From Candidatus Electronema halotolerans (GTDB lineage: Bacteria > Desulfobacterota > Desulfobulbia > Desulfobulbales > Desulfobulbaceae), in contig OW818675.1 of the NCBI GenBank assembly GCA_942493095.1, positions 2,160,001-2,192,000 of the forward strand: a stretch of DNA of 32,000 nt. Direction: 5' to 3'. Both the position numbers and the translations under genes were made by a program. Below, one piece after another: positions 1 to 24,667 of the stretch. Within the stretch, counting starts at the first letter, position 1; each line of letters opens with the position of its first letter. The notes under the pieces were generated by a model that was given only the letters and a program-made list of their open reading frames with translations, had not been told where the DNA came from and made no database searches.

Positions 1-150
1 GCTCCTGATGCCTGCTGCCACGGCGGCGCTTATCAGGCTGCCCCCTGCGCCTGCTGTCATGGCGGCGCATACCAAGCTGCTCCTGATGCCTGCTGTCATG
101 GCGGTGCCTATCAGGCTGCTCCGGCTGCCTGCTGCCACGGCGGCGAGTAA
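1..150 (+). CDS. 3' end of a RiPP precursor peptide (5' end outside the window): four tandem 13-aa cassettes P-x-A-C-C-H-G-G-A-Y-Q-A-A, ending ...ACCHGGE*
   Basis: Frame 1 reads without stops as APDACCHGGAYQAAPCACCHGGAYQAAPDACCHGGAYQAAPAACCHGGE, with TAA at 148-150. The copies differ almost only at synonymous sites (tgc/tgt, cac/cat, tat/tac, cag/caa, gct/gca/gcc, ccc/cct/ccg). The only amino-acid change is at the residue two positions before CC (D/C/D/A). It lies directly 5' of the cyclodehydratase genes. It is not in the ORF track because no start codon lies inside the window. Confidence 0.8.
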   Translation, partial: APDACCHGGAYQAAPCACCHGGAYQAAPDACCHGGAYQAAPAACCHGGE

Positions 151-152
151 TC

Positions 153-207
153 GTTTCAGGTTGACCTGAAACAAGAAACGGGAGCCTGCCTGGAGCAGGT
201 TCCCGTT
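153..207 (+). terminator. Twin GC-rich stem-loops just 3' of the precursor stop (possible partial terminator or mRNA-stabilising element)
   Basis: GTTTCAGG-ttga-CCTGAAAC (153-172) and AACGGGAGCCTGC-ctgga-GCAGGTTCCCGTT (177-207, one G-U pair). No U-tract follows, so this is not a canonical intrinsic terminator. Confidence 0.4.
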
Positions 208-376
208 GCCAAAAAGAGGTGCGCAAAGATGCTGGCTGGCAGCAGAAGTTCTCAAGCCCGAGTCTTTGGCTGTACCGCATCCTGCGCCTGCCACCTCTGC
301 CCCCGCAGAGAATGACAGGAGGCCATCTGACGATGGCCTGCACCTCTCCCCTCAGCATACTCCCCCCGAACTCATT

Positions 377-1279
377 ATGCAAAGCACTTTTTTGCAGCTG
401 CGCCGCTGCCGCCGGATACCGGTGCAGGAAAATAAAGTCCTGCTCAAGTCGGCGGACAAGTCGCTGGCTCTTGCTGCGGACAATATTCATAACCTGCTGG
501 ACAGCCTGCTGCCTCTGCTGAACGGAACCTCCACGGAAAAAGAAGTGCTGGCCGCTCTGGTGCCGGAACTGAAGGAGGATGCGGCAGAGGTGCTCCGGCT
601 CTTGGGCAAGGAAGGCTTCTTGGAGACTGGCGCGGAACCGGCCAAGCAGCTGGCTCAGTCCCTGATTATCCTGATCAGCACTGGGCGGCTGGGTGAGACC
701 ATGTCCCGGCATCTGCGTCAATCCGGTGCGGAGCAGGTCGAGGAGATCGATGCCGAGAGCGCGGCGGGCGGGCACCTGCCTGACTCGCTGCAACAGGCAG
801 CTATGGTTGTAGTCTGCACCGACCTGCCAAGGCCCGACCTCTGCGAGGCAGTCAACAAGGCGGCCTTGACCCTCAAGCTGCCGTGGCTGCTGGTTCAGGC
901 TGACGGCAGAGACGGCTGGGTTGGGCCGCTGTTCATTCCCGGCGAGACCGGCTGCTACGACTGCCTGCGCCAACGACTGCTCTCCTGTTCAGTCAGCCCG
1001 GAGATCGACCAAGCCATCCATGCTGCCGCCCTGCGCCAGCCCTTCACGGAGAGTCTGGAACTGCTGCCGCCCTTCCTTGACCTGCTGGCAGCAATGGCTG
1101 CGCTCGAAGCCATCCGCCACCTGAGCGCAGTCAGCCCGCCGCTCACTTACAAGACCCAGATTCTGCTTGACTGCATCAGCGGCATTTCCCGCCGCGATGT
1201 GCTGCATCGGATTCCCCGTTGCCCAAGCTGCTCAACCAGCAGCGAGCAGGTCTCCCCAATCCAGCCTTTCAGCGGGTGA
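377..1279 (+). CDS. TOMM cyclodehydratase partner ('C' protein): E1/ThiF-like fold with an N-terminal RRE-type leader-peptide-binding domain
   Basis: Same frame as track ORF 206-1279; the first ATG is at 377 (MQSTFLQLRRCRRIPVQENKVLLKS...). The N-terminal ~80 aa resemble a PqqD-like winged-helix RRE. Two CxxC pairs (GCYDC and RCPSC) are typical of SagC/E1-like proteins. The stop at 1277-1279 lies 5 nt before the YcaO ATG. The start is uncertain (TTG 206 is possible). Confidence 0.7.
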   Translation: MQSTFLQLRRCRRIPVQENKVLLKSADKSLALAADNIHNLLDSLLPLLNGTSTEKEVLAALVPELKEDAAEVLRLLGKEGFLETGAEPAKQLAQSLIILISTGRLGETMSRHLRQSGAEQVEEIDAESAAGGHLPDSLQQAAMVVVCTDLPRPDLCEAVNKAALTLKLPWLLVQADGRDGWVGPLFIPGETGCYDCLRQRLLSCSVSPEIDQAIHAAALRQPFTESLELLPPFLDLLAAMAALEAIRHLSAVSPPLTYKTQILLDCISGISRRDVLHRIPRCPSCSTSSEQVSPIQPFSG

Positions 1280-1284
1280 CTGCC

Positions 1285-2568
1285 ATGATGAGCGATTTGC
1301 AGATTGCCCCGTGGCAGCGCGGGCAGGAAACGATCTTGGATGCGTTTGTCAGCTCCCGCTTGGGGCCGGTGAAGAAGCTGCAGGAGCTGACCCGCGAGCC
1401 GGACGCGCCGGATATCTTCAGCTATGTGTCCGAGGTCTGCGACCGGACTCAGTTCCATTTTCAGCAGGGCGGCAAGGTCAGCACCGGCATTGGCATCACC
1501 CGCTTTCATGCCCGCACTGCCGCCATCGGTGAATGCTTGGAACGCTACGCGGCCAGCATGTATGACCGGGACAAGGATGTCATCCTCGCCACCTGGAAGG
1601 AAATGATTGGGCAGGGGTTGCGGACTGCCCACCCGGAGGACTTCGGCCTTTACTCGGAAGCCCAGTATCAACGGCATACGTATCTCAACCGCTTCACTGA
1701 GAACACCCGCATTGGCTGGGCCAAGGCCGTCTGCCTGACTGACAGCAATGCGGAGGTCTGGCTGCCTGCCGCCTTCGTCTTTCTGCCCTATCAGTACATG
1801 GCAGGCGAGACCCAAATCTCTTCGCAAATCTCCACTGGCCTGTCCGCCGCATTTGACTTGGACACGGCTGTCATGGGCGGCATCTGTGAGATTGTGGAGC
1901 GGGAAGCGGTGATGCTGACCTGGCTCCACCGCCTGCCCTGCCCAGAGCTGCGCTTCAGCCCGGACTGCTGGTTCAGCGAAGTGTTCCAGCAACGCTTTGC
2001 CCGCTCCGGCTTCGAGTATTATTTGTGCGAGGCTCCGGGCGACCTCGGCCTGCGCACGGTCTTTGCCATGCTGGTGGATAAGGGCCGCAAGGTGATCTCC
2101 ACTGGCTCCTCGACCAAGCCTGATGCGCAGTCAGCCGCGCTCAAGGCCCTGCTGGAGACCGTGCAGGTGCGCGAGCTGCTCCTGTCCATCCCTCGGAACA
2201 GAAAGCCGCCCAAGTTCCACTTGGAGCCGTACCAGCATCTGCCTGTTGATGAAGACCTGCTGGCCTTCTTCACCTGCAGCCAGGGCAAGGAGGCAGGCAG
2301 CAGGGAAGAGCCGCTCACGCTGGAGCACGTGCTGACCAACTGCAAGCAGGCGGGCTTGGATGTTTATGCTGCCGAGCTGACCACCCCAGACCTTGCTGAG
2401 GCGGGCCTGCATGTGGTGCGGGTGGTCATGCCGCAGACCGTGCGCCTGTACCGCGAGTTTGAGCTGCCCTATCTTGGCGGCAGGCGGCTGTACGAGGCTC
2501 CGGTCAAGCTGGGCTTCACCGCCTTGAGCGAAGAGCGGCTCAATCTCAAGCCCCATCCCTTTGGCTGA
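1285..2568 (+). CDS. YcaO-domain cyclodehydratase ('D' protein)
   Basis: GIGITRFHARTAAIGECLERYAA and STGLSAAFDLDTAVMGGICEIVEREAV match the two conserved YcaO nucleotide/Mg-binding blocks. The C-terminus is Pro-rich (...KPHPFG*). ATG 1285 (MMSDLQ...) is preferred to the track start 1219, which would overlap the upstream gene by 61 nt. Confidence 0.85.
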   Translation: MMSDLQIAPWQRGQETILDAFVSSRLGPVKKLQELTREPDAPDIFSYVSEVCDRTQFHFQQGGKVSTGIGITRFHARTAAIGECLERYAASMYDRDKDVILATWKEMIGQGLRTAHPEDFGLYSEAQYQRHTYLNRFTENTRIGWAKAVCLTDSNAEVWLPAAFVFLPYQYMAGETQISSQISTGLSAAFDLDTAVMGGICEIVEREAVMLTWLHRLPCPELRFSPDCWFSEVFQQRFARSGFEYYLCEAPGDLGLRTVFAMLVDKGRKVISTGSSTKPDAQSAALKALLETVQVRELLLSIPRNRKPPKFHLEPYQHLPVDEDLLAFFTCSQGKEAGSREEPLTLEHVLTNCKQAGLDVYAAELTTPDLAEAGLHVVRVVMPQTVRLYREFELPYLGGRRLYEAPVKLGFTALSEERLNLKPHPFG

Positions 2569-2572
2569 CCGC

Positions 2573-3793
2573 ATGAATACTCTCCCGACACTGGCCCGCA
2601 ACCATCGCTTCTGGCTCTTCTGGGGCGGCCAGTCGCTCTCCAAGATCGGCGACAAGCTCCACTACATCGCCCTGCTTTGGTTTGTGGTCAACCGCACCAA
2701 CTCCGGCCTGGCTATGGGCGGGGTTTTGCTTGCCACCGCCCTGCCGCTGGTCCTCTGCGCACCCAAGACCGGCGAGCTGATCGACCGCTGGAACCGGAAA
2801 TGGCTGCTGGCAGGAGCTGATCTGCTCCGGGCTGTGGCAGCCTTCGGCATCGGCTGGGTCACTGCTGGCAAGGGAACAGTCAACTATCCCCTGCTCTTAG
2901 TGCTGACCGCCCTGATGGCCACGGGCACGGCCTTGTTCCAGCCTGCCCTCAACGCCCTGCTGCCCTGGCTGGTGCGGCAGGAAGACCTGCTGCGGGCCAA
3001 CTCAGTCAACGAGAGTTCAACTCAGCTTGCAGGCTTGGCCGGGCCAGTGCTGGCAGGCGTGTTCCTCACCTTTGCCGAGCCGCACATCGTCTTTTATCTC
3101 AACGGCCTGTCCTTCCTGATCGGCGCACTGGCAGTGCTGCCTTTGTCCGTGCCTCCGCCCAAGGCCGCAGCCACCAAGGCAGGCGACTTCCGGGAAGGGC
3201 TGCGCTGGCTGCTGGATCAGCCCAGCCTGCGTGACTTTGCTGTCACCTTTGCCCTGCTCAACTTCGCGGTCAGCTTCATGGAAGTCTATATTCCCTTTCT
3301 CAACAAGGACTGCTTCGGCGGCGGGCCAAAGGAGCTGGGCCTGATTTTCAGCGCCATCTTTGCGGGCGGCCTGCTGGCCTCGCTCGGCCTGATGGTGAAG
3401 AAGGACGTGAGCCAGCCGCAGAAGGTGATCGGCGGCAGCATCAGCCTGATGGGCCTGGCCTTTGCCGCCATCTTTTTCTTCCGCCAGCAGCAGGCCGCCC
3501 TTTGCCTCTTTCTGGTGATCGGCCTTGGCTGGGGAACCTTTGGCAGCTGCTTCCGGGTCTTTGTCCAGAAGAACGTGGAAGACCAGCGGCGGGGCCGGGT
3601 CTTTGCCCTGATCAGCGCACTTGCCAACACCATGATGCCGCTGGCATACAGCCTTGCCGGGCTGATGACCAGCATTCTGCCCGTCTATCCCGCTTTCCTG
3701 CTTGGCGGCCTGCTGACCTTAGCCAGCGGCTTATATTTATACTCAAGGAGATGCCATCATGCCGACCGTCAATGTCAGGCTCAGTCTGCCTGA
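2573..3793 (+). CDS. MFS transporter, EntS / MFS_3-like (putative exporter of the modified peptide)
   Basis: The N-terminus NHRFWLFWGGQSLSKIGDKLHYIALLWFV resembles the enterobactin-exporter-type MFS family. The protein is hydrophobic throughout, consistent with multiple TM helices. ATG 2573 lies 5 nt after the YcaO stop (alternative TTG 2561 overlaps it). Confidence 0.75.
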   Translation: MNTLPTLARNHRFWLFWGGQSLSKIGDKLHYIALLWFVVNRTNSGLAMGGVLLATALPLVLCAPKTGELIDRWNRKWLLAGADLLRAVAAFGIGWVTAGKGTVNYPLLLVLTALMATGTALFQPALNALLPWLVRQEDLLRANSVNESSTQLAGLAGPVLAGVFLTFAEPHIVFYLNGLSFLIGALAVLPLSVPPPKAAATKAGDFREGLRWLLDQPSLRDFAVTFALLNFAVSFMEVYIPFLNKDCFGGGPKELGLIFSAIFAGGLLASLGLMVKKDVSQPQKVIGGSISLMGLAFAAIFFFRQQQAALCLFLVIGLGWGTFGSCFRVFVQKNVEDQRRGRVFALISALANTMMPLAYSLAGLMTSILPVYPAFLLGGLLTLASGLYLYSRRCHHADRQCQAQSA

Positions 3794-4421
3794 AGACAGC
3801 CTGTCCGAGCTGCTGCATAGCGAAACCAAGCTCACGCCGTATCAGCTCCGGCAGTGGCAGTACCAGCAGCCGCCCGTGAGCGAGCATCCGGCCATTGCCA
3901 AGTGGATGCAGGCACCGTTCAAGGAGTATCTTTCCCTGCCGCAGATTGCCCTGCCACCACCTGCGCCTGCGCCAACCGGCAAGCTGGATGCGGCCTGCCT
4001 TGCCGCTCTGCTCCAGCAGCCTGCGGAGATCAGCTCGCTCGAATGCTACCTGTTAGCCACCGAGCTGGACGGCATTGCCCCCGGTCTGCACCATTACAAC
4101 AAGCGCACGCACTGTCTGGAGACCTTTTCGGACAGCCCTGCGCCTGCCCAGCCGCTCCGGCAGCAGATGCCCGACAACGTGGCCGGGCTGCTCATCGTCA
4201 CAGGTGTGCTGACCCGGATGCGCCTCAAGCACGGCGAGCGCGGCTACAGGTATATGCTCTTTGAGGCAGGCCGGGTGCAGGAGCGGCTGCTGACTGCTGC
4301 GGCAGTCCTGCGCCTCTCTGTGGAGCTGCTGCCGGACTTCTTTGACGATGCGGTCAATGCGCTGCTTGGTGTGGATGGGGTGGAGGAGTCGGCACTCTTT
4401 CTCGCCGGGCTGCGGCGGTGA
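3759..4421 (+). CDS. SagB/ThcOx-type (nitroreductase-fold, FMN) azoline dehydrogenase-like protein, short and divergent
   Basis: AAGGAG at 3745-3750 lies 8 nt before the ATG. The C-terminal block KHGERGYRYMLFEAGRVQERLLTAAAVLRLSVELLPDFFDDAVNALLGVDGVEESALFLAGL matches the SagB-family signature (YgeRxYRY..EaGh..qnl.L.a..lGl......f.D......lg.d...e..l....vG). PGLHHYNKRTHCL matches the G-x-Y-h-Y block. It is only 220 aa and overlaps the MFS gene by 35 nt. Confidence 0.6.
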   Translation: MPTVNVRLSLPEDSLSELLHSETKLTPYQLRQWQYQQPPVSEHPAIAKWMQAPFKEYLSLPQIALPPPAPAPTGKLDAACLAALLQQPAEISSLECYLLATELDGIAPGLHHYNKRTHCLETFSDSPAPAQPLRQQMPDNVAGLLIVTGVLTRMRLKHGERGYRYMLFEAGRVQERLLTAAAVLRLSVELLPDFFDDAVNALLGVDGVEESALFLAGLRR

Positions 4422-4489
4422 GGGCACTGAGACAACTCACAACACATTTACTTGAAATAAAAAATATAACTTCTGTCGAGACACCTGTC

Positions 4490-6535
4490 ATGCATAACAT
4501 CTCAGGAAAGAAAGTACTCAGCACCATTGCTCTTGCAGCAGCAATGCTTCCGCAGACAGTGCGGGCATCTTCTTCGGAAAACAGCGAACAGAGCATCATG
4601 CTGGAGGAAATCACGGTCAAGGGCGAGGCGATCACCTCGGTTGACCAGCCCGCCACTGTCAATGTGATTGGCCCGGACGAAATTCAGGAGGTCAAACTCT
4701 CCCAGCCCGAAAAAATTCTTGAGGAGGTGCCGGGGATCGAAATCCACCGCTACGGCATGGGCGGGGTGGCCAATGAGTTTGCCATCCGGGGCTTTCATAA
4801 TGCCGGGCACGGCGGCGATGCTGCCATTGCGGTTGATGGCATTCTCCTCAATGAAGGGGAATCCCATGCTGACGGTTACGCAGACATGAATGTGATCATT
4901 CCCTTGGAGCTTGACCGGGTGGAGGTCTTCAAGGGGCCATCCTCACCGCTGTTCGGCAATTTCGCCCGAGGCGGAGCTATATCCTTCCACACTCGCAAGA
5001 CAGGAGAATACAATACGTTCCAAACTACAGGCGGCTCCTACGATTCCTACGATGTGCAGCATGTCTTTGGCCATGCTCTCAGCGACAGGCTCCAGCTCAA
5101 CACCGCCCTTCAATATTCTTCCACGGGCGGCTATCAGGACAACTCCTCGTGGCAGCGTGGCAACTTCAGCGGCCGACTGGGCTGGCAGGCAAGCCCGGAG
5201 TTTGATGCTGCGCTTTCTCTGCGGGTGCACAGCTCGACATGGGATGCGCCCGGATATATCCCGAAAGCGCAGTTTGAGGATGAGGATGCAGCCCGGCATC
5301 AGGCAGTCAATGCCGAGGATGACGGCGGCGACAAAGCCTTCACCACCCAGCGGCTTGATCTGGGCTGTAACTTGGACAAGAACCAGCGCATCCTTGCCTG
5401 GACCTACTCCACCCAGCAGGACTTCACCCGCTTTGCCAAATTCGGCTACGACCCCGGCGGGCAGACAGAACGGTTTTATGACCGCATGGTCTATGGCGCC
5501 GGGACAAGCTACAACTTTGAAGGCAGCTATGCTGACCGGAAACTGAACGGTGTTGCCGGGCTGGAGTATCTGCACGAAGACACGGACTGGGAGCGGTATG
5601 ACACGGCCAACCGGGTCCGCACCAAGCAGACGCAGGACCGCAATTTCATCATCAACACCCTGTCTTTGTTTGGCCAGATGGATTATGCCCTGCATCCGCT
5701 CTTTGAGCCTTGGGTCGGGCTGCGCTACGATGCCTTTTCCGGCGACTATGAAAATCGGGATCCCGATGCGGTGCCATTCACTGCGGACATGAATGACTAC
5801 GATCACCTCAGTCCGAAGATCGGCTTTCTCAGCAGCCTGACTGATGCCTTGGAGCTGCGGGCCAGTTACAGCCAGGGCTTTGCCCTGCCCTCTGACGTGC
5901 TCAAGTACAACTCGGCAGCCGGAGACACCGCCACTACAGTGCATCAGTATGAAACCGGGCTGCGCTTCGAGCCGGGCGATCTGCTCACCAGCGATCTGGC
6001 CCTGTTCCTGATTGACACCGAAGATGAGATTCAGGAATATCCTTCCGACTCAGGCAGCTATGTCAATCTAGGAGAAACTCGGCGGGAAGGCATGGAGCTG
6101 TCCGCAACCCTGCGTCCGGGCTGGCCCGGCTTTGAGCTGTTCGGCGATCTGACCGTGATCAGCACAGAGATCACCAGCAACCCGGATGCGGCCATGATCG
6201 GCAAGGAAGTCACCGGGGTGCCTGACTACACCAGCAATCTCGGCATCCGTTACCGGGCTGCTTCCGGCTGCAATGGCCGGATCAAGTGGCGGCATGTTGA
6301 CAGCTATTTTGTTGACGACAGCAATACCGCCTCCTATGACGGCTATGACGTGACCGACGCATCTCTCGGCTATGAAGGAAAAACCGGCAACGGCACAGGC
6401 TGGCGGGTCAATCTGGATATCGACAATCTCTTTGACGAGCATTACAGCCAGGCTGTCTGGAGCGGCTACGACACCACCAACTATGCGGTCAGTCCGGGGC
6501 GGACCTTCTGGCTGCGCTTGACGCTGGATATGTGA
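4490..6535 (+). CDS. TonB-dependent outer-membrane receptor
   Basis: Signal peptide MHNISGKKVLSTIALAAAMLPQTVRA. TonB-box-like IMLEEITVKGE. Plug-domain motifs (VEVFKGPSSPLFGNFARGGAISFHT). A long beta-barrel region rich in Y/G/D/N. The C-terminal residue is Met rather than the usual aromatic. ATG 4490 is preferred to the track start 4418. Confidence 0.85.
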   Translation: MHNISGKKVLSTIALAAAMLPQTVRASSSENSEQSIMLEEITVKGEAITSVDQPATVNVIGPDEIQEVKLSQPEKILEEVPGIEIHRYGMGGVANEFAIRGFHNAGHGGDAAIAVDGILLNEGESHADGYADMNVIIPLELDRVEVFKGPSSPLFGNFARGGAISFHTRKTGEYNTFQTTGGSYDSYDVQHVFGHALSDRLQLNTALQYSSTGGYQDNSSWQRGNFSGRLGWQASPEFDAALSLRVHSSTWDAPGYIPKAQFEDEDAARHQAVNAEDDGGDKAFTTQRLDLGCNLDKNQRILAWTYSTQQDFTRFAKFGYDPGGQTERFYDRMVYGAGTSYNFEGSYADRKLNGVAGLEYLHEDTDWERYDTANRVRTKQTQDRNFIINTLSLFGQMDYALHPLFEPWVGLRYDAFSGDYENRDPDAVPFTADMNDYDHLSPKIGFLSSLTDALELRASYSQGFALPSDVLKYNSAAGDTATTVHQYETGLRFEPGDLLTSDLALFLIDTEDEIQEYPSDSGSYVNLGETRREGMELSATLRPGWPGFELFGDLTVISTEITSNPDAAMIGKEVTGVPDYTSNLGIRYRAASGCNGRIKWRHVDSYFVDDSNTASYDGYDVTDASLGYEGKTGNGTGWRVNLDIDNLFDEHYSQAVWSGYDTTNYAVSPGRTFWLRLTLDM

Positions 6536-6628
6536 ACGAGGCAGGGGGGCCTATGCCTTGAGCACCTCCTCAATAATTTCCTGTCATGCGCTGATTGTTG
6601 AAAGATCGCAGACCTCAGTCTGGCTTCT

Positions 6629-6766
6629 GAAATGCACGCTTTCGCAGCTCACGAATGCATGGTTTCGCATCTATCGAATGCATGCATTCGTGCCAATCGA
6701 ATGGGTGCATTCGTACCGATCAAATGCACGCAGTTATATGTTACGAATGCATGGTTTCATGTGCAG
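6629..6766 (+). repeat. Six head-to-tail 23-bp repeats, core CGAATGCATGCATTCG (palindrome), in the leader of the ABC importer operon
   Basis: AATGCA/AATGGG starts at 6631, 6654, 6677, 6700, 6723 and 6746, an exact 23-bp phase. Units: GAAATGCACGCTTTCGCAGCTCA / CGAATGCATGGTTTCGCATCTAT / CGAATGCATGCATTCGTGCCAAT / CGAATGGGTGCATTCGTACCGAT / CAAATGCACGCAGTTATATGTTA / CGAATGCATGGTTTCATGTGCAG. Confidence 0.9.
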
Positions 6767-6841
6767 GAAAACCGGCTGGCCGGGTGCGCCCGGCTCTGCC
6801 CCGCTGTCCTGCAAAATATCTGCTGGAATATTTACAACATC

Positions 6842-8470
6842 ATGAGCAAGAGCTTCATTACGAAATCCCTGATCCCGTTGCAATGGCTGGCAATCCTGCT
6901 CCTGTTTCTTCTGGTCAGCTGTGACCAGCCGGACAAGTCGGCAAAGCAGACTGCAGCCGCGCAGCATCCTGAGACCTTGGTCTTGGCCATCGGCGGCGAG
7001 GAGGAGCAGGGCTATGATCCGACTATGGGCTGGGGCCGCTACGGTTCCCCGCTCTTTCACTCCACCCTGCTCCGCTACAACGACGCGCTGAAGATCGAAG
7101 ACGATCTGGCCACAGGCTACACGGTCAGCGAAGACCGGCTCACGTGGACTGCGGATATCCGCCCGGATGCCCGCTTCTCTGATGACACCCCGGTGACAGC
7201 CGAGGATGTGGCCTACACCTTCAACACGGCCAAGAAGTCGGGCGGCTTGGTTGATCTGCATTTTCTCACCCAAGCTGAGGCGGTGGGCGGGCACCGGGTC
7301 GTCTTTCATCTCAGCAAGCCGCAGTCAACCTTCATCCACCGGCTGCGCACCTTGGGCATCGTGCCGAAACACGCGCACGGCAAGGACTACGGGCGGCATC
7401 CCATTGGTTCCGGCCCGTACAAGATGGTGCGCTGGGATGAGGGCCAGCAGCTTGTTGTTGAGGCCAATCCCCTCTACTACGGAAAAAAGCCTGCCATTCA
7501 GCGGCTGGCCTTTCTCTTTCTTGACCAAGACACCGCCTTTGCCGCAGCTCAGGCAGGGACAGTCCAGATGGCGGCGGTGCCGCAGATTCTGGCGGACAAG
7601 GAGGTTCCAGGGATGCGCCTGGTGCGCGTCACCAGTGTGGACAACCGGGGCATCATGTTTCCCTGTCAACCGGCAACTCATGCGGACTACAAGGGAAAGC
7701 CTGTGGGCAATGATGTCACGGCTGATCCTGCCATCCGCCAGGCAATCAACTATGCCATTGACCGGCAGGCGCTGGTGCAGGGAGTGCTGAACGGCTTCGG
7801 CACCCCGGCTTACGGTTCGGTCAGTCATCTGCCGTGGGAGGAATCGGCAACCCGGTTCAAGGATCATGATCTGGACAAGGCCGCAGCCCTGCTCAAGGCC
7901 GCAGGCTGGGAAGATCATGATCAGGACGGCATTGTGGACAAAGACGGGGTGGCAGCCACGTTCACTCTTCTGTATCCCGCTGACCGGCTGATCCGCCAGT
8001 CTTTAGCCTTGGCAGTGGCGGACATGCTGGCTCCGCTCGGCATCCGCTTGGAGCTGTCCGGCAAAAGCTGGGAGGAAATCCAGAAGGTCCAGCATGCCCA
8101 GGCTGTGCTCTTCGGCTGGGGCAGCCATGATCCGACCGAGATGTACAATCTCTTTTACAGCCAAGTTGCCGGGCAGGGCTATTTCAATCCCGGCTTCTAC
8201 AGCAACCCCAAGGTCGATGCATATTTGGAGCAGGCCATGTCTGCCGCCTCGCCGGAAGAGGCCACGAAATACTGGCGGGCCGTGCAGTGGGACGGCAGCA
8301 CCGGGGTTGCCGCGCAGGGCGATGCGCCGTGGGCCTGGTTAGTCAATCTTGACCACACCTATCTGGTCGATCAGCGGCTTGATGTTGGCACCTCCAGAGT
8401 GGAGCCGCACGGCCACGGCTGGCCGATCACCGCAAACATCACAGAATGGCGATGGAAGGAGGTGCCATGA
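6842..8470 (+). CDS. ABC transporter substrate-binding lipoprotein, family 5 (NikA/OppA/DppA-like)
   Basis: ATG 6842 gives MSKSFITKSLIPLQWLAILLLFLLVSC with a lipobox (LVSC). The rest has the length and composition of a family-5 SBP. The track start 6632 would translate the 23-bp repeat array. No clear SD precedes 6842. Confidence 0.8.
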   Translation: MSKSFITKSLIPLQWLAILLLFLLVSCDQPDKSAKQTAAAQHPETLVLAIGGEEEQGYDPTMGWGRYGSPLFHSTLLRYNDALKIEDDLATGYTVSEDRLTWTADIRPDARFSDDTPVTAEDVAYTFNTAKKSGGLVDLHFLTQAEAVGGHRVVFHLSKPQSTFIHRLRTLGIVPKHAHGKDYGRHPIGSGPYKMVRWDEGQQLVVEANPLYYGKKPAIQRLAFLFLDQDTAFAAAQAGTVQMAAVPQILADKEVPGMRLVRVTSVDNRGIMFPCQPATHADYKGKPVGNDVTADPAIRQAINYAIDRQALVQGVLNGFGTPAYGSVSHLPWEESATRFKDHDLDKAAALLKAAGWEDHDQDGIVDKDGVAATFTLLYPADRLIRQSLALAVADMLAPLGIRLELSGKSWEEIQKVQHAQAVLFGWGSHDPTEMYNLFYSQVAGQGYFNPGFYSNPKVDAYLEQAMSAASPEEATKYWRAVQWDGSTGVAAQGDAPWAWLVNLDHTYLVDQRLDVGTSRVEPHGHGWPITANITEWRWKEVP

Positions 8471-9438
8471 AACGCTTTCTCCGCAAGAAGCTCCTGCAAT
8501 TAGTGCTGATTCTGCCTGCGGTGGCCATGCTCTCCTTTTTCCTGCTCCAGTTTTCACCCATTGACCCGGTCCGGGCCTATATCGGGGCGGACATGCTTCA
8601 GGTGAGTCAGGAGCAGCGGCAGCAGATCGCGGCCCGCTGGGGCTTGGATCAGCCGCCGCTGATGCGCTATCTGCACTGGCAGAAGGAAATCCTCACCGGC
8701 AATATGGGCACTTCCCTGCTCTTTCAGGAGCCAGTGACCAAGGTGATTGCCCGCCGCTTCATTCCCTCCTTAGCCTTGATGGGCACTGCCTGGCTGCTTT
8801 CCGGGCTGATCGGCTTTGTTCTCGGCGTGATTGCCGGACTGCGGCAGAACTCGCTGGCTGACCGGCTTATCCGCCTCTATGCCTACACCTTGGCCTCAAC
8901 TCCGGCCTTCTGGCTGGGAATGCTGCTGATCATCATCTTTTCCGTGCGGCTTGGCTGGACCCCGGTCTGCTGCGCCTATCCGCCGGGCATGTCGCCTGAC
9001 CAAGTGAGCATCGGACAATGGCTCCGTCATCTGCTTCTGCCTGCCGCCACGTTGAGCATCATCTCAGTGGCCGCTGTAACCCTGCACACCCGGCAGAAGC
9101 TGCTGGAGGTGATGGAGACGGATTTTGTCCTCTTTGCCCGCGCCAAGGGCGAAAGCACCTGGGGCGTGTTCCGCCGCCATGCTCTGCGCCACGTCCTGCT
9201 GCCTGCGCTCACGATCCAGTTTGCCTCGTTCGGCGAACTCTTCGGCGGCTCCATCCTGGCCGAGCAGGTCTTTTCCTATCCCGGCCTGGGCGAGGCCACT
9301 GTCCGGGCCGGGCTGGGCGGGGATGTGCCGCTGCTCCTGGGCATTGTCTTAGTCAGCTCCGTCTTTGTCTTTTCCGGCAACGCCATAGCTGACCTGCTCT
9401 ACACAGTTGTTGATCCCCGTTTGCGGAGGACTGTCTGA
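8467..9438 (+). CDS. ABC transporter permease (NikB/OppB/DppB-like)
   Basis: The ATG at 8467 overlaps the SBP stop (ATGA) and GGAAGGAGG lies just upstream. It is a multi-TM protein with a typical N-terminus (MKRFLRKKLLQLVLILPAVAMLSF) and the C-terminal ...LLYTVVDPRLR motif of this permease family. Confidence 0.85.
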   Translation: MKRFLRKKLLQLVLILPAVAMLSFFLLQFSPIDPVRAYIGADMLQVSQEQRQQIAARWGLDQPPLMRYLHWQKEILTGNMGTSLLFQEPVTKVIARRFIPSLALMGTAWLLSGLIGFVLGVIAGLRQNSLADRLIRLYAYTLASTPAFWLGMLLIIIFSVRLGWTPVCCAYPPGMSPDQVSIGQWLRHLLLPAATLSIISVAAVTLHTRQKLLEVMETDFVLFARAKGESTWGVFRRHALRHVLLPALTIQFASFGELFGGSILAEQVFSYPGLGEATVRAGLGGDVPLLLGIVLVSSVFVFSGNAIADLLYTVVDPRLRRTV

Positions 9439-10253
9439 TGCACCAGCGAACCCGCGCCCTTGCAGCGGCAGGAGCCTGCGCCGCCTTTCTGCTGGCCATT
9501 GTGCTCGCCTATTATTTCTTTGTCCCGGAGGTGCTGCGCACGGACCTCAGCCTGCGCAATCAGCCGCCCGGATTCAGCCATCTTTTCGGCACCGACTGGA
9601 TGGGCCGGAACATGCTCCTGCGCACCATTGCCGGGCTGCGCCTCAGCCTCCAGACTGGCCTGACCGCAGCCGCAGCCAGTGCTCTGCTGGCCCTGTTCCT
9701 TGGTCTGGCCGCCGGCATTTTGGGCGGCTGGGTGGACGGCGTGGTCTCCTGGCTCATTGACATCTTCATCAGCCTGCCCCATCTGGTGCTGCTCATTCTG
9801 GTCTCCTTTGCCTTTGGCGGCGGCCTGAAAGGAGTGACTGTCGCCATTGCAGTCAGTCATTGGCCGCGCCTGGCCCGGATTATCCGGGCGGAAACCATGC
9901 AACTCAAGGACAGCCCGTTTATTCATCATGCCCGCTGCTTTGGCAGAACGCCGTGGCAGATCGGGTGGCAGCATATTCTGCCCCATCTGGCGCCTCAGTT
10001 CATTGTCGGCCTGCTCCTGCTCTTTCCTCACGCCATCCTCCACGAGGCGGGCCTGACCTTTGTCGGTCTGGGCCTTTCACCCCATGAACCGGCAGTGGGC
10101 ATCATTCTCGCTGAAGCCATGCGCCATCTCTCCACTGGAAACTGGTGGTTGGCTGTGCTGCCCGGCGCAGCTTTGCTGGCTATGGTCAAAACCTTTGATT
10201 TGATGGGAGAGAATGTGCGCATCCTTCTCCAACCGCGAATAAGTCAGGAATAA
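9438..10253 (+). CDS. ABC transporter permease (NikC/OppC/DppC-like)
   Basis: The start overlaps the upstream stop (TGATG). It carries the binding-protein-dependent transport signature region and hydrophobic TM segments. TAA at 10251-10253. Confidence 0.85.
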   Translation: MHQRTRALAAAGACAAFLLAIVLAYYFFVPEVLRTDLSLRNQPPGFSHLFGTDWMGRNMLLRTIAGLRLSLQTGLTAAAASALLALFLGLAAGILGGWVDGVVSWLIDIFISLPHLVLLILVSFAFGGGLKGVTVAIAVSHWPRLARIIRAETMQLKDSPFIHHARCFGRTPWQIGWQHILPHLAPQFIVGLLLLFPHAILHEAGLTFVGLGLSPHEPAVGIILAEAMRHLSTGNWWLAVLPGAALLAMVKTFDLMGENVRILLQPRISQE

Positions 10254-10266
10254 TCAGGAGGCATTC

Positions 10267-11070
10267 ATGCTGGAAATCGACAACCTGCGCATCTCGTTCA
10301 GCCGCTATGAATACGGATTCAGCCGCCAGCGGATCACCGGGGTCAAGGGCATCTCCCTGCGGGTGCGGCCCGGCTCGATCAACTTGGTGGCCGGGGCCAG
10401 CGGCGCAGGCAAGAGTCTGCTGCTGGCCGCCATTCTCGGCCTGCTGCCTGCCAATGGCAGCAGCAGCGGCAGCATTCGTTTCAAAGGGCAGGAGCATGCT
10501 GACCCTGCCCCGCTCCGAGGCAGGGAGATTGCCCTGATTCCCCAGTCAGCAGATGGGCTGGATCCGCTCCAGCAGGTGGGCAAGCAGGTGCGCCGGGCCG
10601 CCCGGCTGGCCGGGCTGACCAAGAAAGAGGCAGCGGCTCAGACTGAAGCCATGTTCAATCGTTACGGACTGGGCTTGGAAGCACTGCGGCTGTATCCCTT
10701 TCAGCTCTCCGGCGGCATGGCCACCCGGGTGCTGCTGGCCTGCGCCACGGTGGGCCGGGCCGGACTGCTGCTGGCCGATGAACCCACCACCGGCTTGGAT
10801 GAGGACAACTGCCGCCAGGTCTTTGCCCATCTCCGCCAGCTTGCCGACGAGGGCCGGGGCATCCTGCTGATCAGCCATGACCTGAGCGCAGCCCTGCCCG
10901 TGGTCGATGAAGTCACCATTCTCAGAGACGGCAGCTTGGTGGAAACCATGTCTGCTGCCGATTTCCGGCAAGGCATCTGCGATTCTCCGTACAGTCGAGC
11001 ACTGCATCAAGCCCTGCCGGAAAACGGCTTTACGGTCAGTCAATCTTTGCAGGAAGCCTGCCATGCTTGA
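10267..11070 (+). CDS. ABC transporter ATP-binding protein (NikD/OppD-like)
   Basis: CAGGAGG SD. Walker A GASGAGKS, ABC signature LSGGMATR, Walker B LLLADEPTTGLD. Confidence 0.9.
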   Translation: MLEIDNLRISFSRYEYGFSRQRITGVKGISLRVRPGSINLVAGASGAGKSLLLAAILGLLPANGSSSGSIRFKGQEHADPAPLRGREIALIPQSADGLDPLQQVGKQVRRAARLAGLTKKEAAAQTEAMFNRYGLGLEALRLYPFQLSGGMATRVLLACATVGRAGLLLADEPTTGLDEDNCRQVFAHLRQLADEGRGILLISHDLSAALPVVDEVTILRDGSLVETMSAADFRQGICDSPYSRALHQALPENGFTVSQSLQEACHA

Positions 11071-11668
11071 AGCTGCTGACCTCTCGTTTGCCTATAATGG
11101 CGGCAAGCCGATCCTGGACAAGGTGAATCTGCGCGTGCAGCCCGGCGAGGTGCGGGGCCTGACCGCTCCCAGCGGCTCTGGCAAGACCACGCTGGCCAAG
11201 GTGCTCTGCGGGCACCTGCCTGTCCAAGGCGGGGCGATTCGGGTCAACCGCCAGCCCTTGCCTGAGAAAAGCTATTGCCCGATTCAGCTCATCAATCAGC
11301 ACCCGGAGCAGGGCTTTAATCCCCGCTGGCGGCTGGGCAGGTCATTGGCTGAACCTGCGCCGCCTGATCCGCAGCTCCTTGACCGGCTCGGCATCAAAAG
11401 CGGCTGGCTGAACCGTTACCCGCACGAACTCTCCGGCGGCGAGCTGCAACGATTTGCCATTGCCCGCGCCTTGGCTCCACAGACTGCCTTTGTTGTTGCT
11501 GATGAGATCACGGTTATGCTTGATGCCATCAGTCAGGCCCAAGTCTGGCAGGTGCTGCTCCAGACGGCGCAGGAGCGGCAGCTCGGCATGTTGGTCATCA
11601 GTCATAACCGCCACCTTCTCAGCCGCATCTGCACACAGACAGTTGCGATGCGTGATCTCTTCGCCTGA
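11063..11668 (+). CDS. ABC transporter ATP-binding protein (NikE/OppF-like)
   Basis: ATG 11063 (MLEAADLSFAYNGG...) overlaps the upstream gene by 8 nt. Walker A APSGSGKTT, signature LSGGELQR, Walker B FVVADEITVMLD. The track start 10907 lies inside the previous gene. Confidence 0.88.
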   Translation: MLEAADLSFAYNGGKPILDKVNLRVQPGEVRGLTAPSGSGKTTLAKVLCGHLPVQGGAIRVNRQPLPEKSYCPIQLINQHPEQGFNPRWRLGRSLAEPAPPDPQLLDRLGIKSGWLNRYPHELSGGELQRFAIARALAPQTAFVVADEITVMLDAISQAQVWQVLLQTAQERQLGMLVISHNRHLLSRICTQTVAMRDLFA

Positions 11669-11670
11669 AG

Positions 11671-12474
11671 ATGAACCCCATTCAAGCGTGGAAGGACTTC
11701 CAAGACCGCAGCCTCTACTATCAGGCGGTGCGGCGGGATGGCGAGGAACCGGTCTGGCAGGAGATTGCCAAGGACTATGACCGGCTGGTCTATTCTGAGC
11801 AGCAGAAGGAGACGCTGCTGACCAAGCTGACGCACCGTCTGCACGGGATTGAGACCGCGATTGAGATCGGCGCAGGCAGCGGCACTCTCACCCTGCCCTT
11901 GGTCAGGCATCTGCGGGAGATTGCCGCCGTGGAGCCGTCCGCAGCAATGGCAGCGGCCCTGCACGCCAGTCTGGCCGAGCATAAGATCAGGAATGTCTCC
12001 GTCTTTCAGGAGAAATGGGAGAACATGCAGCCTGCTGCGGCGGACGTGGTCTTGGCAGGCGGCTGTCTGTACGTCTTCTACGAGATTGACAAAGTCCTGC
12101 GCAAGATGCTGGCCTGCGCCAAGAAGAAGGTGTTGATCACCCACGTGGGCAACTGCGGGCTGTGGCACTTTGACCGGCTGCTGCTGGAGCGGCTGGGCGC
12201 ACCCAAGCCATGCCTCTTTCCGCCCCTGTCCCTGTTGCTGGACGTGCTCCTCCACCTCCAGCTACCAGCGGTGATGGACATCACCTTTGCCAAGGGCAGG
12301 AAGTGCTTCACCCCGGAGCAATGGCTGCGCCGCTGCCAGCGGCTCTTGCAGCTTGCCGAGCCGCCGCCCGTGCTGCTGGACTTCCTGATGCAGGAATTCA
12401 GTCAGGACGGCGACTGCTGGAGCATGGAGGAGGAGGTGCCGCTGGCTGTGATTGAACTGAGGAAAACATCATGA
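11671..12474 (+). CDS. Class I SAM-dependent methyltransferase
   Basis: Motif I IEIGAGSGTLTLPL followed by an acidic residue (AAVEPS) and the post-I/II pattern. The start is 2 nt after the ATPase stop, and its own stop overlaps the next start (ATGA). Confidence 0.7.
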   Translation: MNPIQAWKDFQDRSLYYQAVRRDGEEPVWQEIAKDYDRLVYSEQQKETLLTKLTHRLHGIETAIEIGAGSGTLTLPLVRHLREIAAVEPSAAMAAALHASLAEHKIRNVSVFQEKWENMQPAAADVVLAGGCLYVFYEIDKVLRKMLACAKKKVLITHVGNCGLWHFDRLLLERLGAPKPCLFPPLSLLLDVLLHLQLPAVMDITFAKGRKCFTPEQWLRRCQRLLQLAEPPPVLLDFLMQEFSQDGDCWSMEEEVPLAVIELRKTS

Positions 12475-14003
12475 GGCAACAAATCGTAGGCCCCCGTGTC
12501 TGCCCAACTGGGTCTGGCGCAAGTACAGGGGCTTGCCCCTACATTATAGGTATTGTTTCTATTCTTCTCTGCATCGTTCTGCTGTGCAGAGGCATGGCGC
12601 AGGCGGCTGGCAACGACAAACTGGTGGTTGCAGTGGGCAGCGATGCCTACACCAGCTCCGGGCCACGGGCCAACTTAGGCAAGTACCCGCTCAACGCCAA
12701 TATTTTTGAGTCGCTGACGACCTTTGACGAGCAGTTCCGCCTCCTGCCCTGCTTGGCTGTGGCATGGGACTATCAAGGCGAGCGCACTTGGCGGTTCATC
12801 CTGCGGCAGGGGGTGCGCTTTCATGACGGCAGCCCGCTCGACGCAGCAGCAGTGCGGGCCTCCTTGGAAGCGCAGCAGCAGGCAGGCACCCTGCTCTTTG
12901 CCTTTGACAAGATCACCGAGCTGGATGCGCACAGCCTCGCCATCACCACGCCGGAAGAGAACCTGATTCTGCCCTACATCCTCTCGCACCCCTACATGGG
13001 CATCAGCAGGCCGGGCGACAAGCCGGTCGGCACCGGGCCGTTCAGATTTGTCCGCCATGTCAAGGATCAGCTTTTGGAGGTGGCGCGCAACGAGGACTAC
13101 TGGGGAGACAAGGCCAAGAGCGCGGGCATCGTCTTCCGCTTCCTGCCGGACAGCGCGGCCCGTCTGCTGGCTTTCCGGGCCAAGGAGGCGGACGTGCTGG
13201 CCGATCTGCCTTGGGAGGCAGTGCCTGAACTGAAAAAGAGCAAGGACATCATCCTCCGCAGCTCGCCGAGGGGGGCTTATGTCGGCCTGATGCTCTCCGT
13301 CAAAGGGCCGCTGGCGGACAGGACAGCCCGGCAGGCGGTCTCCCTTGCCCTTGACCGGCCAGCGATCATCAAGGCGCTCTGGCATGGCTATGGCGAGGCC
13401 CGCCAGACCCTGCTGGCCCCGGCCTTTCTCGGCAAGGCGGCAGAGCTGCTCCCAGACACGCCCTGCGACCCGGCCCAAGCAAGAACGCTGCTCAAGGGCA
13501 GGCCGCTGCGCCTGACTCTGGTGTCCGGCTTTCCCAATGCCGAGGCGCATGGTCTGCTGCCGGAGATCATCCAGAGCCAGCTCCAGGCCGCAGGCATCAG
13601 CATCCAGCTTCAGAAAATCAATGACACCGGTCTCTACCACGACCTGCTCAAGGCGGGCAAAGGCGACCTCTGGCTGGAGCGCGGCAACCTCAACAGCGCC
13701 GATCTAACCTTCCTGCCCCACCTGCTCTTTCACCCAGAGGGTTTTTATCCCAAGCACCTTGGCAGCCCTGCCGGAGGCGCGGCCTTCTGCCAGCGCATCC
13801 ATGCGGCCCGGATAGCGACAAACGATGCAGCCTTCCGCGAGCAGACCGCCTTGGCCCTGCGCGAGATCATTGCTGAGGAGCGGCTTTTCATTCCCATTGC
13901 CGAGCTGCCTTTTCTCCTTGCAGCCCAGCCCGGCGTGCAGATTCCGGCCCTCCACCCCACCCTGCTGACCACGAACTGGGCTGCCTTTGCCAAGCAGCCA
14001 TGA
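12471..14003 (+). CDS. Second family-5 ABC substrate-binding protein (NikA/DppA-like)
   Basis: Hydrophobic N-terminal signal/anchor (IIGIVSILLCIVLLCRGMAQA), followed by family-5 SBP-like sequence (LVVAVGSDAYTSSGPRANLGKYPLNANIFESLTTFDEQFRLLPCLAVAWDYQGERTWRFILRQGVRFHDGSPLDA). The exact start is uncertain. Confidence 0.8.
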   Translation: MRQQIVGPRVCPTGSGASTGACPYIIGIVSILLCIVLLCRGMAQAAGNDKLVVAVGSDAYTSSGPRANLGKYPLNANIFESLTTFDEQFRLLPCLAVAWDYQGERTWRFILRQGVRFHDGSPLDAAAVRASLEAQQQAGTLLFAFDKITELDAHSLAITTPEENLILPYILSHPYMGISRPGDKPVGTGPFRFVRHVKDQLLEVARNEDYWGDKAKSAGIVFRFLPDSAARLLAFRAKEADVLADLPWEAVPELKKSKDIILRSSPRGAYVGLMLSVKGPLADRTARQAVSLALDRPAIIKALWHGYGEARQTLLAPAFLGKAAELLPDTPCDPAQARTLLKGRPLRLTLVSGFPNAEAHGLLPEIIQSQLQAAGISIQLQKINDTGLYHDLLKAGKGDLWLERGNLNSADLTFLPHLLFHPEGFYPKHLGSPAGGAAFCQRIHAARIATNDAAFREQTALALREIIAEERLFIPIAELPFLLAAQPGVQIPALHPTLLTTNWAAFAKQP

Positions 14004-14194: not shown

Positions 14195-14228
14195 CTCCGG
14201 GGCCATCACGGCCCCGGAGAGTTTTTCT
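14195..14228 (+). terminator. Rho-independent terminator closing the importer operon
   Basis: CTCCGGGGCC-atcac-GGCCCCGGAG (perfect 10-bp stem) followed by AGTTTTTCTTC. Confidence 0.75.
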
Positions 14229-14391: not shown

Positions 14392-14652
14392 ATGAAAGGA
14401 ACCCACGAGCACGAGCATCAGCATGAGCATGCACATGAGCATCAGCATGAGCATGAGCACGCGCATGGCGACAGCAAGCACAGCCATGAGCACGGTCATG
14501 AACATGCGCATGGCCATAAGCACGAGCACAAGCACCCCCATGATCACAGCGGCGCAGGCAATGCCCATGAGCATGAGCACAAGGGTGAGCATGGGCAGCA
14601 TGACCACAGCCATGCTGGCCATGAGCAGGAGGAGCATTCGCACAAGCATTGA
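14392..14652 (+). CDS. Histidine-rich metal-binding protein (Hpn-like; alternating H-x-H)
   Basis: AAGGAG lies 7 nt upstream of the ATG. The 86-aa product is MKGTHEHEHQHEHAHEHQHEHEHAHGDSKHSHEHGHEHAHGHKHEHKHPHDHSG...EEHSHKH, with 34 His by my count. No signal peptide. Confidence 0.75.
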   Translation: MKGTHEHEHQHEHAHEHQHEHEHAHGDSKHSHEHGHEHAHGHKHEHKHPHDHSGAGNAHEHEHKGEHGQHDHSHAGHEQEEHSHKH

Positions 14653-24468: not shown

Positions 24469-24469
24469 G

Positions 24470-24667
24470 TCAACCGCCTCCAACAAAACTGAGCAGCTCC
24501 ACTGTGTCCCCATCCTGGAGGACATGCTGCTGCCAGTGTTCTTTTTTAATCAGCTCAAAATTGACTTCCGCGACTATCGCATCAGGAACAAAGCCTTGTT
24601 CCGCGATCAGCTCGCGCAAAGTCTGGTCTGCGGTGTCAACCGGCTGGCCGTTCAGAATTATTTGCAT
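24470..24667 (-). CDS. thiS: Sulfur-carrier protein ThiS
   Basis: [10 protein letters not shown]...[10 protein letters not shown] is 65 aa with the C-terminal Gly-Gly. ATG 24667 is preferred to the track start 24697. Confidence 0.85.

Follow-up and report, generated by a model that had tools for sequence, protein, structure and literature searches.

A candidate YcaO-based ribosomal metallophore locus in the cable bacterium Candidatus Electronema halotolerans and its relatives

The first 14,003 nucleotides of a 32,000-nucleotide (nt) stretch of the Candidatus Electronema halotolerans genome (contig OW818675.1, positions 2,160,001 to 2,192,000; hereafter the window) carry a gene string that, judging from gene context, encodes a ribosomally made metallophore system, a reading to which we assign a probability of roughly 0.6. 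Pfam and NCBIfam scans recovered on the + strand of positions 1-14003 all the gene classes that an earlier note on this DNA had listed, namely those of a peptide that is made on the ribosome and modified after translation (RiPP) together with those of an exporter, a TonB-dependent receptor and an importer. A more specific version, which we put forward tentatively and would place below even odds, is that the product is a YcaO-derived ribosomal metallophore, the first of its type, present in cable bacteria and a few other sediment bacteria: a small thiazoline/His peptide, released from a four-cassette precursor, that scavenges nickel from sulfidic sediment for the conductive fibres of these organisms and acts as a public good, producer and non-producer strains both keeping the receptor. 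Methanobactins, which bind copper, and their MNIO relatives are to our knowledge the only ribosomal metallophores established so far, and a search of the literature available without subscription found neither a YcaO-based metallophore nor an account of the peptide genes of this locus, in agreement with the earlier note, which had regarded such a system as undescribed.

We compared six independent RiPP loci whose YcaO proteins are 46-100% identical to that of the window: the window together with L011, also from Ca. E. halotolerans (100%), L004 from Desulfobulbaceae UBA5173 (80%), L001 from Ca. Electronema aureum (74%), the metagenome contig L003 (70%), and the contigs L010 (51%; 46% GC) and L006 (47%; 54% GC). 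YcaO homologs above 46% identity are rare, with eleven clusters among 5.8 billion proteins. All six loci combine the RiPP genes with an orthologous receptor, methyltransferase, binding protein and parts of an ATP-binding cassette (ABC) importer, so that biosynthesis, exporter, TonB receptor and binding-protein/ABC importer are conserved as one locus, as in metallophore systems. The layout is seen at a glance in L010, where a single 12-gene operon encodes the receptor, precursor, E1-like protein, YcaO, major facilitator superfamily (MFS) pump, SagB-like protein, methyltransferase, binding protein, two permeases and two ATPases, with a divergent AraC-type regulator beside the receptor. Gene order varies among the six loci and gene content is constant, which is what functional coupling predicts. 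The logic of making, exporting, recapturing and importing a product, which had been proposed from the window sequence in preference to a bacteriocin locus, is supported by the synteny of RiPP and transport genes, which was seen in all relatives recovered with a YcaO at least 46% identical. In contrast, none of 40 control loci of at least 8 kb around YcaOs no more than 35% identical to that of the window carries the receptor, a family-5 binding protein, an MFS_3 pump, this methyltransferase or Opp-type permeases, and three gene maps of distant YcaO loci agree with this result; the controls came from a metagenome scan with a YcaO profile, which yielded distant YcaOs only (33% identity or less) since the patterns conserved in the profile were generic.

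The transport genes that travel with the RiPP genes lie partly inside the window and partly just upstream of it. The exporter gene (2573-3793, + strand) encodes an MFS_3 protein of the EntS family (PF05977, 112 bits; PF07690, 122 bits; a weak match to EntS itself), and it is kept within the cassette in L001, L003, L004 and L010 at 51-73% identity. The conserved TonB receptor is located just upstream of the window (L011 2276-4288); it is 50-76% identical across loci and scores 240 bits against the siderophore-receptor model TIGR01783 (cutoff 223.5). In E. halotolerans this receptor, one permease and one ATPase are found immediately upstream of the window. At the other end of the string, a class I S-adenosylmethionine (SAM)-dependent methyltransferase recognised by Pfam (11671-12474, + strand) is always directly upstream of the second, conserved family-5 binding protein (12471-14003, + strand; PF00496, 209 bits). 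Methyltransferase orthologs are 44-62% identical in all loci and binding-protein orthologs 48-67% identical in every locus; the best named relatives of the latter are nickel binders of the Opp5A/NikA type, at scores well below their cutoffs. In the periplasm, the conserved binding protein is likely what receives the peptide or the complex of peptide and metal; its sequence is an exact match to CAK8720077.1, and the amino-acid permease of the window matches CAK8720112.1 exactly. A strong, bidirectional terminator-like hairpin at 14195-14219 closes the co-directional gene string.

The methyltransferase travels with this uptake unit and not with the biosynthetic cassette, since it is retained in strains from which the cassette is missing, and it may not be a tailoring enzyme. 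Its AlphaFold2 model (pLDDT 91) has as nearest folds small-molecule and peptide N- and S-methyltransferases at TM scores of 0.5-0.6; an assignment of its substrate from structure was rejected, since these matches are generic class I methyltransferases. Homologs at 35% identity (L092) were likewise set aside as further members because their gene context is unrelated.

Comparison of strains with and without the cassette separates production from uptake. L003 is 98-99% identical to L094 and L095 up to the receptor stop codon, where a 5,160-nt indel is present in L003 (5714-10873) and absent from L094 (9521-9522) and L095 (3366-3367). The indel holds two precursor copies and the E1, YcaO, MFS and SagB genes, that is, the make-and-export cassette only; beyond it L003 aligns with L094/L095 again at 94.5% identity, from a few bases ahead of the methyltransferase start codon, and both strains keep the receptor, the methyltransferase and the binding protein. 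The locus of Ca. Electrothrix gigas (L093) is reduced in the same way, and a YcaO homolog search returned no E. gigas YcaO from a database in which E. gigas proteins are represented. Loss of the make-and-export cassette with retention of the uptake genes is the pattern of siderophore non-producers.

Other uptake-related genes adjoin the conserved receptor or the RiPP genes in some of these loci. In Electrothrix-type loci (L003 300-3600, L093 1327-6150, L094 1056-7401), a second peptide-like module lies next to the conserved receptor and comprises twin identical open reading frames (ORFs) of 21 amino acids (MVKCVRKPASGKKQAPPCLPH), a radical-SAM/SPASM enzyme, an MFS_3 pump, a methyltransferase and a TonB receptor of 751 amino acids; it may be another receptor-linked RiPP. 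In E. aureum (L001 15870-21287), a TonB receptor of 755 amino acids, an FmdE-domain protein, a methyltransferase and a Peripla_BP_2/FecCD importer beside the RiPP genes form a further metal-chelate-type uptake set.

The precursor gene is cut by the window edge. Its start lies about 50 nt upstream, and its 3' part (1-150, + strand) was recognised from its translation, from a 39-nt tandem repeat (3.7 copies), from the full gene in L011 and from homologous precursors. Frame 1 of this segment reads APDACCHGGAYQAAPCACCHGGAYQAAPDACCHGGAYQAAPAACCHGGE followed by a stop codon and contains four x-A-C-C-H-G-G cassettes (AP-x-A-CCHGG-AYQA) with A-Y-Q-A-A-P spacers. The full gene (L011 6186-6392; window position = L011 position minus 6242) encodes M(IE)MAVHAEVLKPEASYNAAP-[x-A-CCHGG-AYQAAP]x3-AACCHGGE, a product of roughly 65 amino acids made of a short leader and the four cassettes, with no signal peptide. 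Homologous precursors are P0105-P0108 and those of L001, L003, L004 and L010; the consensus is AP-x-(A/G)-C-C-H-G-(G/S) with 2-4 cassettes per precursor, Y-x-x-(A/T)-P precedes each cassette including the one that follows the leader, and the final cassette terminates after CCHG(G). In the six precursor genes the amino acids A-C-C-H-G do not vary over 23 cassettes, with 2-4 synonymous codons in use at each position, which argues for purifying selection on ACCHG beyond chance. Precursor homologs are fewer than YcaO homologs (four matches among the 5.8 billion proteins), and an NCBIfam scan of the precursor matched no family.

Directly 3' of the precursor stop codon, two stable hairpins without a U tract (153-207, + strand; fold of 140-260 at -49.7 kcal/mol, z = -3.3 versus shuffles) possibly act as a transcript stabiliser or an attenuator. 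They are followed by a decayed second precursor copy (about 215-330, + strand), revealed when its DNA is aligned with the intact precursor genes of E. halotolerans and E. aureum; it retains the leader residues AEVLKPES and has its frame broken by a 1-nt deletion; in L003 the two copies are both intact. Between the conserved receptor and the precursor, E. halotolerans also carries an oppositely directed NACHT/NB-ARC NTPase gene together with a spacer rich in GTGCAACG-type repeats (L011 4290-5952), an insertion not seen in the relatives.

Two adjacent genes would provide the heterocyclization machinery. The E1/ThiF-like partner (377-1279, + strand), with an N-terminal domain resembling a RiPP recognition element (RRE), matches PF00899 above its cutoff and scores 65.1 bits against TIGR03882 (cutoff 36.9); a profile built from five homologs matches TruD residues 37-221, LynD residues 37-214 and the N-terminal half of MusD, as well as MccB, and gives a weak match to the isolated RRE of PbtF (E 0.008). 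The YcaO cyclodehydratase of 427 amino acids (1285-2568, + strand; PF02624, 204 bits) scores 235.4 bits against the SagD-family model TIGR03604 (cutoff 219.25), and among solved structures it comes closest to the YcaO halves of MusD, TruD and LynD, which are cyanobactin heterocyclases. Since YcaO and its partner match the two halves of these enzymes, the pair is predicted to be a split cyanobactin-type heterocyclase, which fits a precursor in which short cores recur between conserved spacers. The GE..ER and E.VERE motifs (ATP/Mg binding) are invariant in 13 homologs, as is the P-H-P-F-G of the C-terminus (...KPHPFG). Azoline-forming YcaOs end in a proline-rich PxPxP motif, to which this C-terminus is similar and not identical.

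The SagB-like nitroreductase-fold protein (3759-4421, + strand) scores 63.6 bits against TIGR03605, below the cutoff of 78.4. In the three Electronema loci and L003, a 14-residue deletion covers the RPxPSxGxLYP segment (aligned to McbC RRPYPSGGALYP), and in place of the Lys-Tyr motif E. halotolerans and UBA5173 have Lys-His, E. aureum has Gln-His and L003 has Gln-Tyr; in the more distant homologs of L006 and L010 both the segment and the Lys-Tyr pair are intact. The window protein is probably a SagB homolog rather than an active flavin mononucleotide (FMN)-dependent dehydrogenase, and azoline oxidation appears to be lost or impaired in cable bacteria. Tandem thiazoline or thiazole rings had been proposed for the product; because the FMN motif is lost, thiazolines are the more likely in the cable-bacterial peptide and tandem thiazoles are doubtful. 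Of the parts that define an azol(in)e RiPP cluster, the locus contains a YcaO with its motifs, an E1-like partner with an RRE and an adjacent short precursor with a Cys-rich core, and the window protein probably does not supply an FMN-dependent azoline dehydrogenase of the SagB/McbC type.

Between the SagB-like gene and the methyltransferase, the E. halotolerans string contains a further set of transport genes. A TonB-dependent receptor with plug and barrel domains (4490-6535, + strand; start revised to 4490) is followed by a family-5 binding protein of the YntA nickel-binding lipoprotein type (6842-8470, + strand; start at ATG 6842 with lipobox LVSC, not at 6632), which matches Yersinia YntA (PDB 4ofl) over its full length at about 50% identity (483 bits, E 1e-143). 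Contiguous with it (6842-11668, five genes) are YntB/C-like permeases (8467-9438 and 9438-10253, + strand; best NCBIfam models Opp2B/Opp2C, 'nickel ABC transporter permease') and YntD/E-like ATPases (10267-11070 and 11063-11668, the latter start revised to 11063, + strand; best models NikD/NikE), all four with Pfam matches; the NCBIfam NikA-E/Opp2 equivalog cutoffs are not reached. We conclude that 4490-11668 is a predicted YntABCDE-type nickel importer with its receptor, and that it is a lineage-specific insertion, since it is non-orthologous to the uptake parts conserved with the RiPP genes: its receptor shares 25-27% identity with the receptor that is conserved in the other loci and its ABC system 25-38% with the conserved ABC parts, and the module is missing from the other RiPP loci. 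On the same grounds this receptor and first ABC system were rejected as the cognate uptake arm of the peptide. The claim that receptor and importer belong to the peptide system thus holds for the methyltransferase and the second binding protein, and has to be corrected for the window receptor and first ABC system, the conserved receptor lying upstream of the window.

The spacer before yntA (6536-6841, 306 nt) had been described as a regulatory leader. A palindromic motif, AATGCA(T/C)G / CGAATGCATGCATTCG, occurs in it six times at a spacing of 23 nt (6630-6760) and includes the perfect palindrome CGAATGCATGCATTCG; the spacer matched no Rfam family at gathering or E<=1 thresholds; a riboswitch or RNA leader was rejected on this account, and the repeat looks like a protein operator instead. 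In E. aureum this array precedes the conserved receptor (L001 6335-6420), with four copies that run in the opposite orientation, and in E. gigas it precedes the methyltransferase/binding-protein pair (L093 8353-8440). In our reading, the shared putative operator would let one regulator control both the nickel importer and the uptake genes that belong to the locus itself. The system would be tied to nickel supply because the inserted Ynt importer sits behind an operator repeat that relatives use before their own uptake genes.

From these parts the following course can be proposed for a metallophore. A precursor with a short leader and four x-A-C-C-H-G-G cassettes, each preceded by Y-x-x-A-P, would be bound by the RRE/E1-like partner, and YcaO would cyclodehydrate its cysteines to thiazolines with ATP, as expected from the families to which these proteins belong. 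With the SagB-like FMN site lost in cable bacteria, the rings probably remain thiazolines, or one Cys may remain a thiol. The product could be the whole peptide or, more likely though speculatively, units of 7-13 residues cut by unlinked peptidases; such units are favoured because of the sequence pattern around the cassettes, the EntS-type pump and the Opp/Nik-type importer. The EntS-family MFS pump would export the product, which outside the cell may bind a thiophilic or borderline metal through a ring nitrogen or sulfur and the His imidazole. The metal complex would re-enter through the conserved siderophore-type TonB receptor, and in the periplasm the conserved family-5 binding protein would take it and pass it to the Opp/Nik-type ABC importer. 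The methyltransferase, joined to the uptake unit, may act on the peptide or after import. In this genome, the insertion of a YntABCDE-type nickel importer with its own receptor into the operon would link the system to nickel supply.

Nickel is, by context, the most likely metal, copper, cobalt and zinc being also possible. The embedded Ynt module, the shared operator, the NikA/Opp5A-type relatives of the conserved binding protein, a His-rich protein, a neighbouring DUF4198 protein and the biology of the host all suggest nickel. The His-rich protein (14392-14652, + strand; 86 amino acids, 34 of them His, no signal peptide) has an ortholog in UBA5173 (L004 6184-6357) between a permease gene and the conserved receptor, and a cytoplasmic metal store linked to the locus is possible. 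The conductive fibres of cable bacteria contain a nickel-sulfur cofactor and impose an unusually high nickel demand (PMC11247825). The cofactor is a nickel bis(dithiolene) for which a ligand of the ethylene-tetrathiolate type has been proposed and whose biosynthesis is unknown (PMC13534509). Furthermore, a clade-specific Nik/Opp/Dpp operon with an undefined TonB-dependent transporter directly upstream has been reported for cable bacteria in a study that does not mention adjacent peptide genes (PMC11247825); window positions 4490-11668 fit this description. The lean of the earlier note towards nickel or cobalt thus gains on the nickel side from the YntA-type importer and the cable-bacterium host (PMC11247825).

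That the locus makes a metallophore for another metal (copper, through a YcaO-type chalkophore, cobalt, zinc or iron), with the Ynt module as an unrelated insertion, is the alternative that survives best, and we consider it rather unlikely. A donor set of Cys and His equally suits Cu(I/II), Co and Zn, and methanobactin, the nearest RiPP analogue known, carries copper and is taken up by a TonB receptor and a family-5 binding protein, MbnE, which also appears among the PDB matches. The absence of the Ynt module from the other loci and the score of the conserved receptor as a generic siderophore receptor also agree with this alternative. The shared operator array, however, joins yntA to the locus's own uptake genes, and the nickel-type relatives of the conserved binding protein, the His-rich and DUF4198 proteins nearby and the special nickel demand of the host (PMC11247825) speak for nickel.

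It is improbable that the product is a linear azoline peptide antibiotic of a microcin-like kind, the MFS pump serving export and self-protection and the receptor and ABC genes unrelated nutrient uptake. Indeed, linear azol(in)e antibiotics are classically made by a YcaO together with an E1-like partner and a SagB-like protein, and drug efflux pumps occur among MFS_3 relatives. Yet the transport genes co-vary with the RiPP genes over the whole range of YcaO identity in spite of rearrangement and are missing from all distant YcaO loci, a high-affinity importer encoded by the producer suits recapture and not a toxin, and import genes are retained in non-producers. As had been claimed, neither an ABC exporter with a peptidase domain nor an immunity-like gene is present among the scanned ORFs of the window.

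Least probable of the alternatives is that the peptide is not a secreted scavenger and instead gives rise to, or carries, the sulfur-ligated nickel cofactor of the fibres, or serves as a periplasmic or cytoplasmic metal buffer: a sulfur-rich core in a nickel-linked locus of cable bacteria and a fibre complex of unknown biosynthesis would accord with it, but an exporter and a TonB receptor imply a loop outside the cell, the precursor lacks a signal peptide, homologous operons lie on contigs of different base composition (L006 and L010), and the peptide is unlikely to feed the fibre cofactor itself because E. gigas and the L094/L095 strains do not have the YcaO cassette, and fibres are described as a trait of the whole cable-bacteria clade (PMC11247825), and because the proposed cofactor ligand is a small dithiolene and not a peptide (PMC13534509).

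Several observations weigh against a metallophore system of this kind or against its connection with nickel. The contrast with the 40 control loci is weakened because many of them probably belong to Gram-positive or soil taxa without TonB receptors and may come from bacteria that lack an outer membrane. Scans of the window and of the related loci examined found no peptidase domain for leader or cassette cleavage. The conserved binding protein is distant from characterised nickel and opine binders (E 1e-28 at best). The Ynt module is a genome-specific insertion that could merely be a neighbour under shared regulation; the operator array corresponds to no metal regulator or regulator box that we recognised, and there is no regulator gene in the window. 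Ca. Electrothrix gigas, which has the greatest fibre mass, is without the YcaO cassette, and the radical-SAM peptide module could instead supply the ligand of the conserved receptor.

If the locus does encode a metallophore, a YcaO/thiazoline carrier would represent a second, chemically independent ribosomal route to such compounds and a ribosomal counterpart of the thiazoline siderophores made by non-ribosomal peptide synthetases (NRPSs). The locus bears on the question of how cable bacteria obtain the large amount of nickel needed for conductive fibres where sulfide locks metals away. The AP-x-A-CCHGG motif combined with the receptor/methyltransferase/binding-protein unit provides a precise search key for mining similar systems, and the short core makes synthesis and metal-binding tests straightforward.

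Some features of the window beyond the gene string deserve mention. A second TonB receptor (14766-16874) scores 718 bits against the NCBIfam 'FCYXU motif-type' model (cutoff 825); the possibility of a selenoprotein receptor was rejected, since it has a single Cys, no FCYXU motif and a score below the cutoff. The protein of 546 amino acids that follows (to 18540) combines a signal peptide with two tetrapyrrole-methylase domains, an odd periplasmic location for this fold. Between this gene and the DUF4198 gene, an IS5-like transposase (18677-19690, - strand; DDE_Tnp_1 and DUF772) occupies a low-GC patch (41-49%). ThiH and ThiG of thiamine thiazole synthesis are encoded 8 kb downstream (22565-24525, - strand), and this proximity is probably coincidental and unrelated to the peptide thiazolines. 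At the end of the window (24775-31902, - strand), a protein of 2,375 amino acids, 36% of them Asp or Glu, is made up of DDFFSMEDD-type units encoded by a 189-nt repeat in about 23 copies and has no Pfam match.

Comparison with known systems places the locus between several of them. With linear azol(in)e peptides such as microcin B17, plantazolicin and streptolysin S it shares YcaO, the E1-like partner, the SagB-like protein and a Cys-rich core; it differs from them by the loss of the FMN motif, by conserved uptake genes in place of a peptidase-ABC exporter and immunity gene, and by a short repeated cassette with an invariant His. In opine metallophore (Cnt) systems, too, a metallophore goes together with a family-5 importer; the window contains no opine synthase genes of the CntKLM type (CntL/CntM), and both binding proteins match the CntA model weakly (80 bits, cutoff 800). 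Window positions 6842-11668 form a five-component family-5 ABC importer like YntABCDE and NikABCDE. The Ynt and Nik systems are known to take up complexes of the Ni-(His)2 type and to have no biosynthetic genes of their own, whereas here the importer stands inside a RiPP operon. As for the NRPS-made thiazoline siderophores pyochelin and yersiniabactin, the common ground consists of Cys-derived thiazoline N/S donors and of an exporter, a TonB receptor and an inner-membrane importer; the present system differs in being ribosomal and YcaO-based instead of using NRPS cyclization domains, in having no salicylate cap and in its Opp/Nik-type importer. The AraC-type regulator next to the receptor in L010 recalls PchR and YbtA, the AraC-type regulators of the pyochelin and yersiniabactin systems.

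The enzymes are closest to those of cyanobactin pathways (PatE-type precursors; PatD, TruD and LynD), with heterocyclase halves like those of TruD, LynD and MusD and short Cys cores repeated between conserved spacers. Cyanobactin precursors have spacers of the AYDG type, for which AYQAAP stands here. The differences are that the heterocyclase is split into two genes, that a TonB receptor and an ABC importer are present and that the host is a member of the Desulfobulbaceae; no PatA/PatG-type subtilisin protease or macrocyclase was found in the window or the related loci examined.

The logic of the locus is that of the methanobactin operon, which encodes the precursor MbnA, the modifying proteins MbnB and MbnC, the exporter MbnM of the multidrug and toxic compound extrusion (MATE) family, the TonB receptor MbnT and the family-5 binding protein MbnE. 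Both systems have a ribosomal peptide with Cys-derived heterocycles thought to bind metal, and an exporter, a TonB receptor and a family-5 binding protein alongside. They differ in chemistry, YcaO/E1-type cyclodehydration here and oxazolone-thioamide formation by an MNIO enzyme (MbnB/DUF692) there, and neither an MNIO/DUF692 nor an MbnC domain is found among the scanned ORFs of the window. A multi-cassette precursor, an MFS rather than a MATE exporter, ABC permease and ATPase genes, a methyltransferase and suspected nickel rather than copper further distinguish the present locus. The closest known system is thus methanobactin by its logic and the cyanobactin heterocyclases by its enzymes, and the locus is more probably than otherwise a RiPP metallophore system made by a different chemistry.

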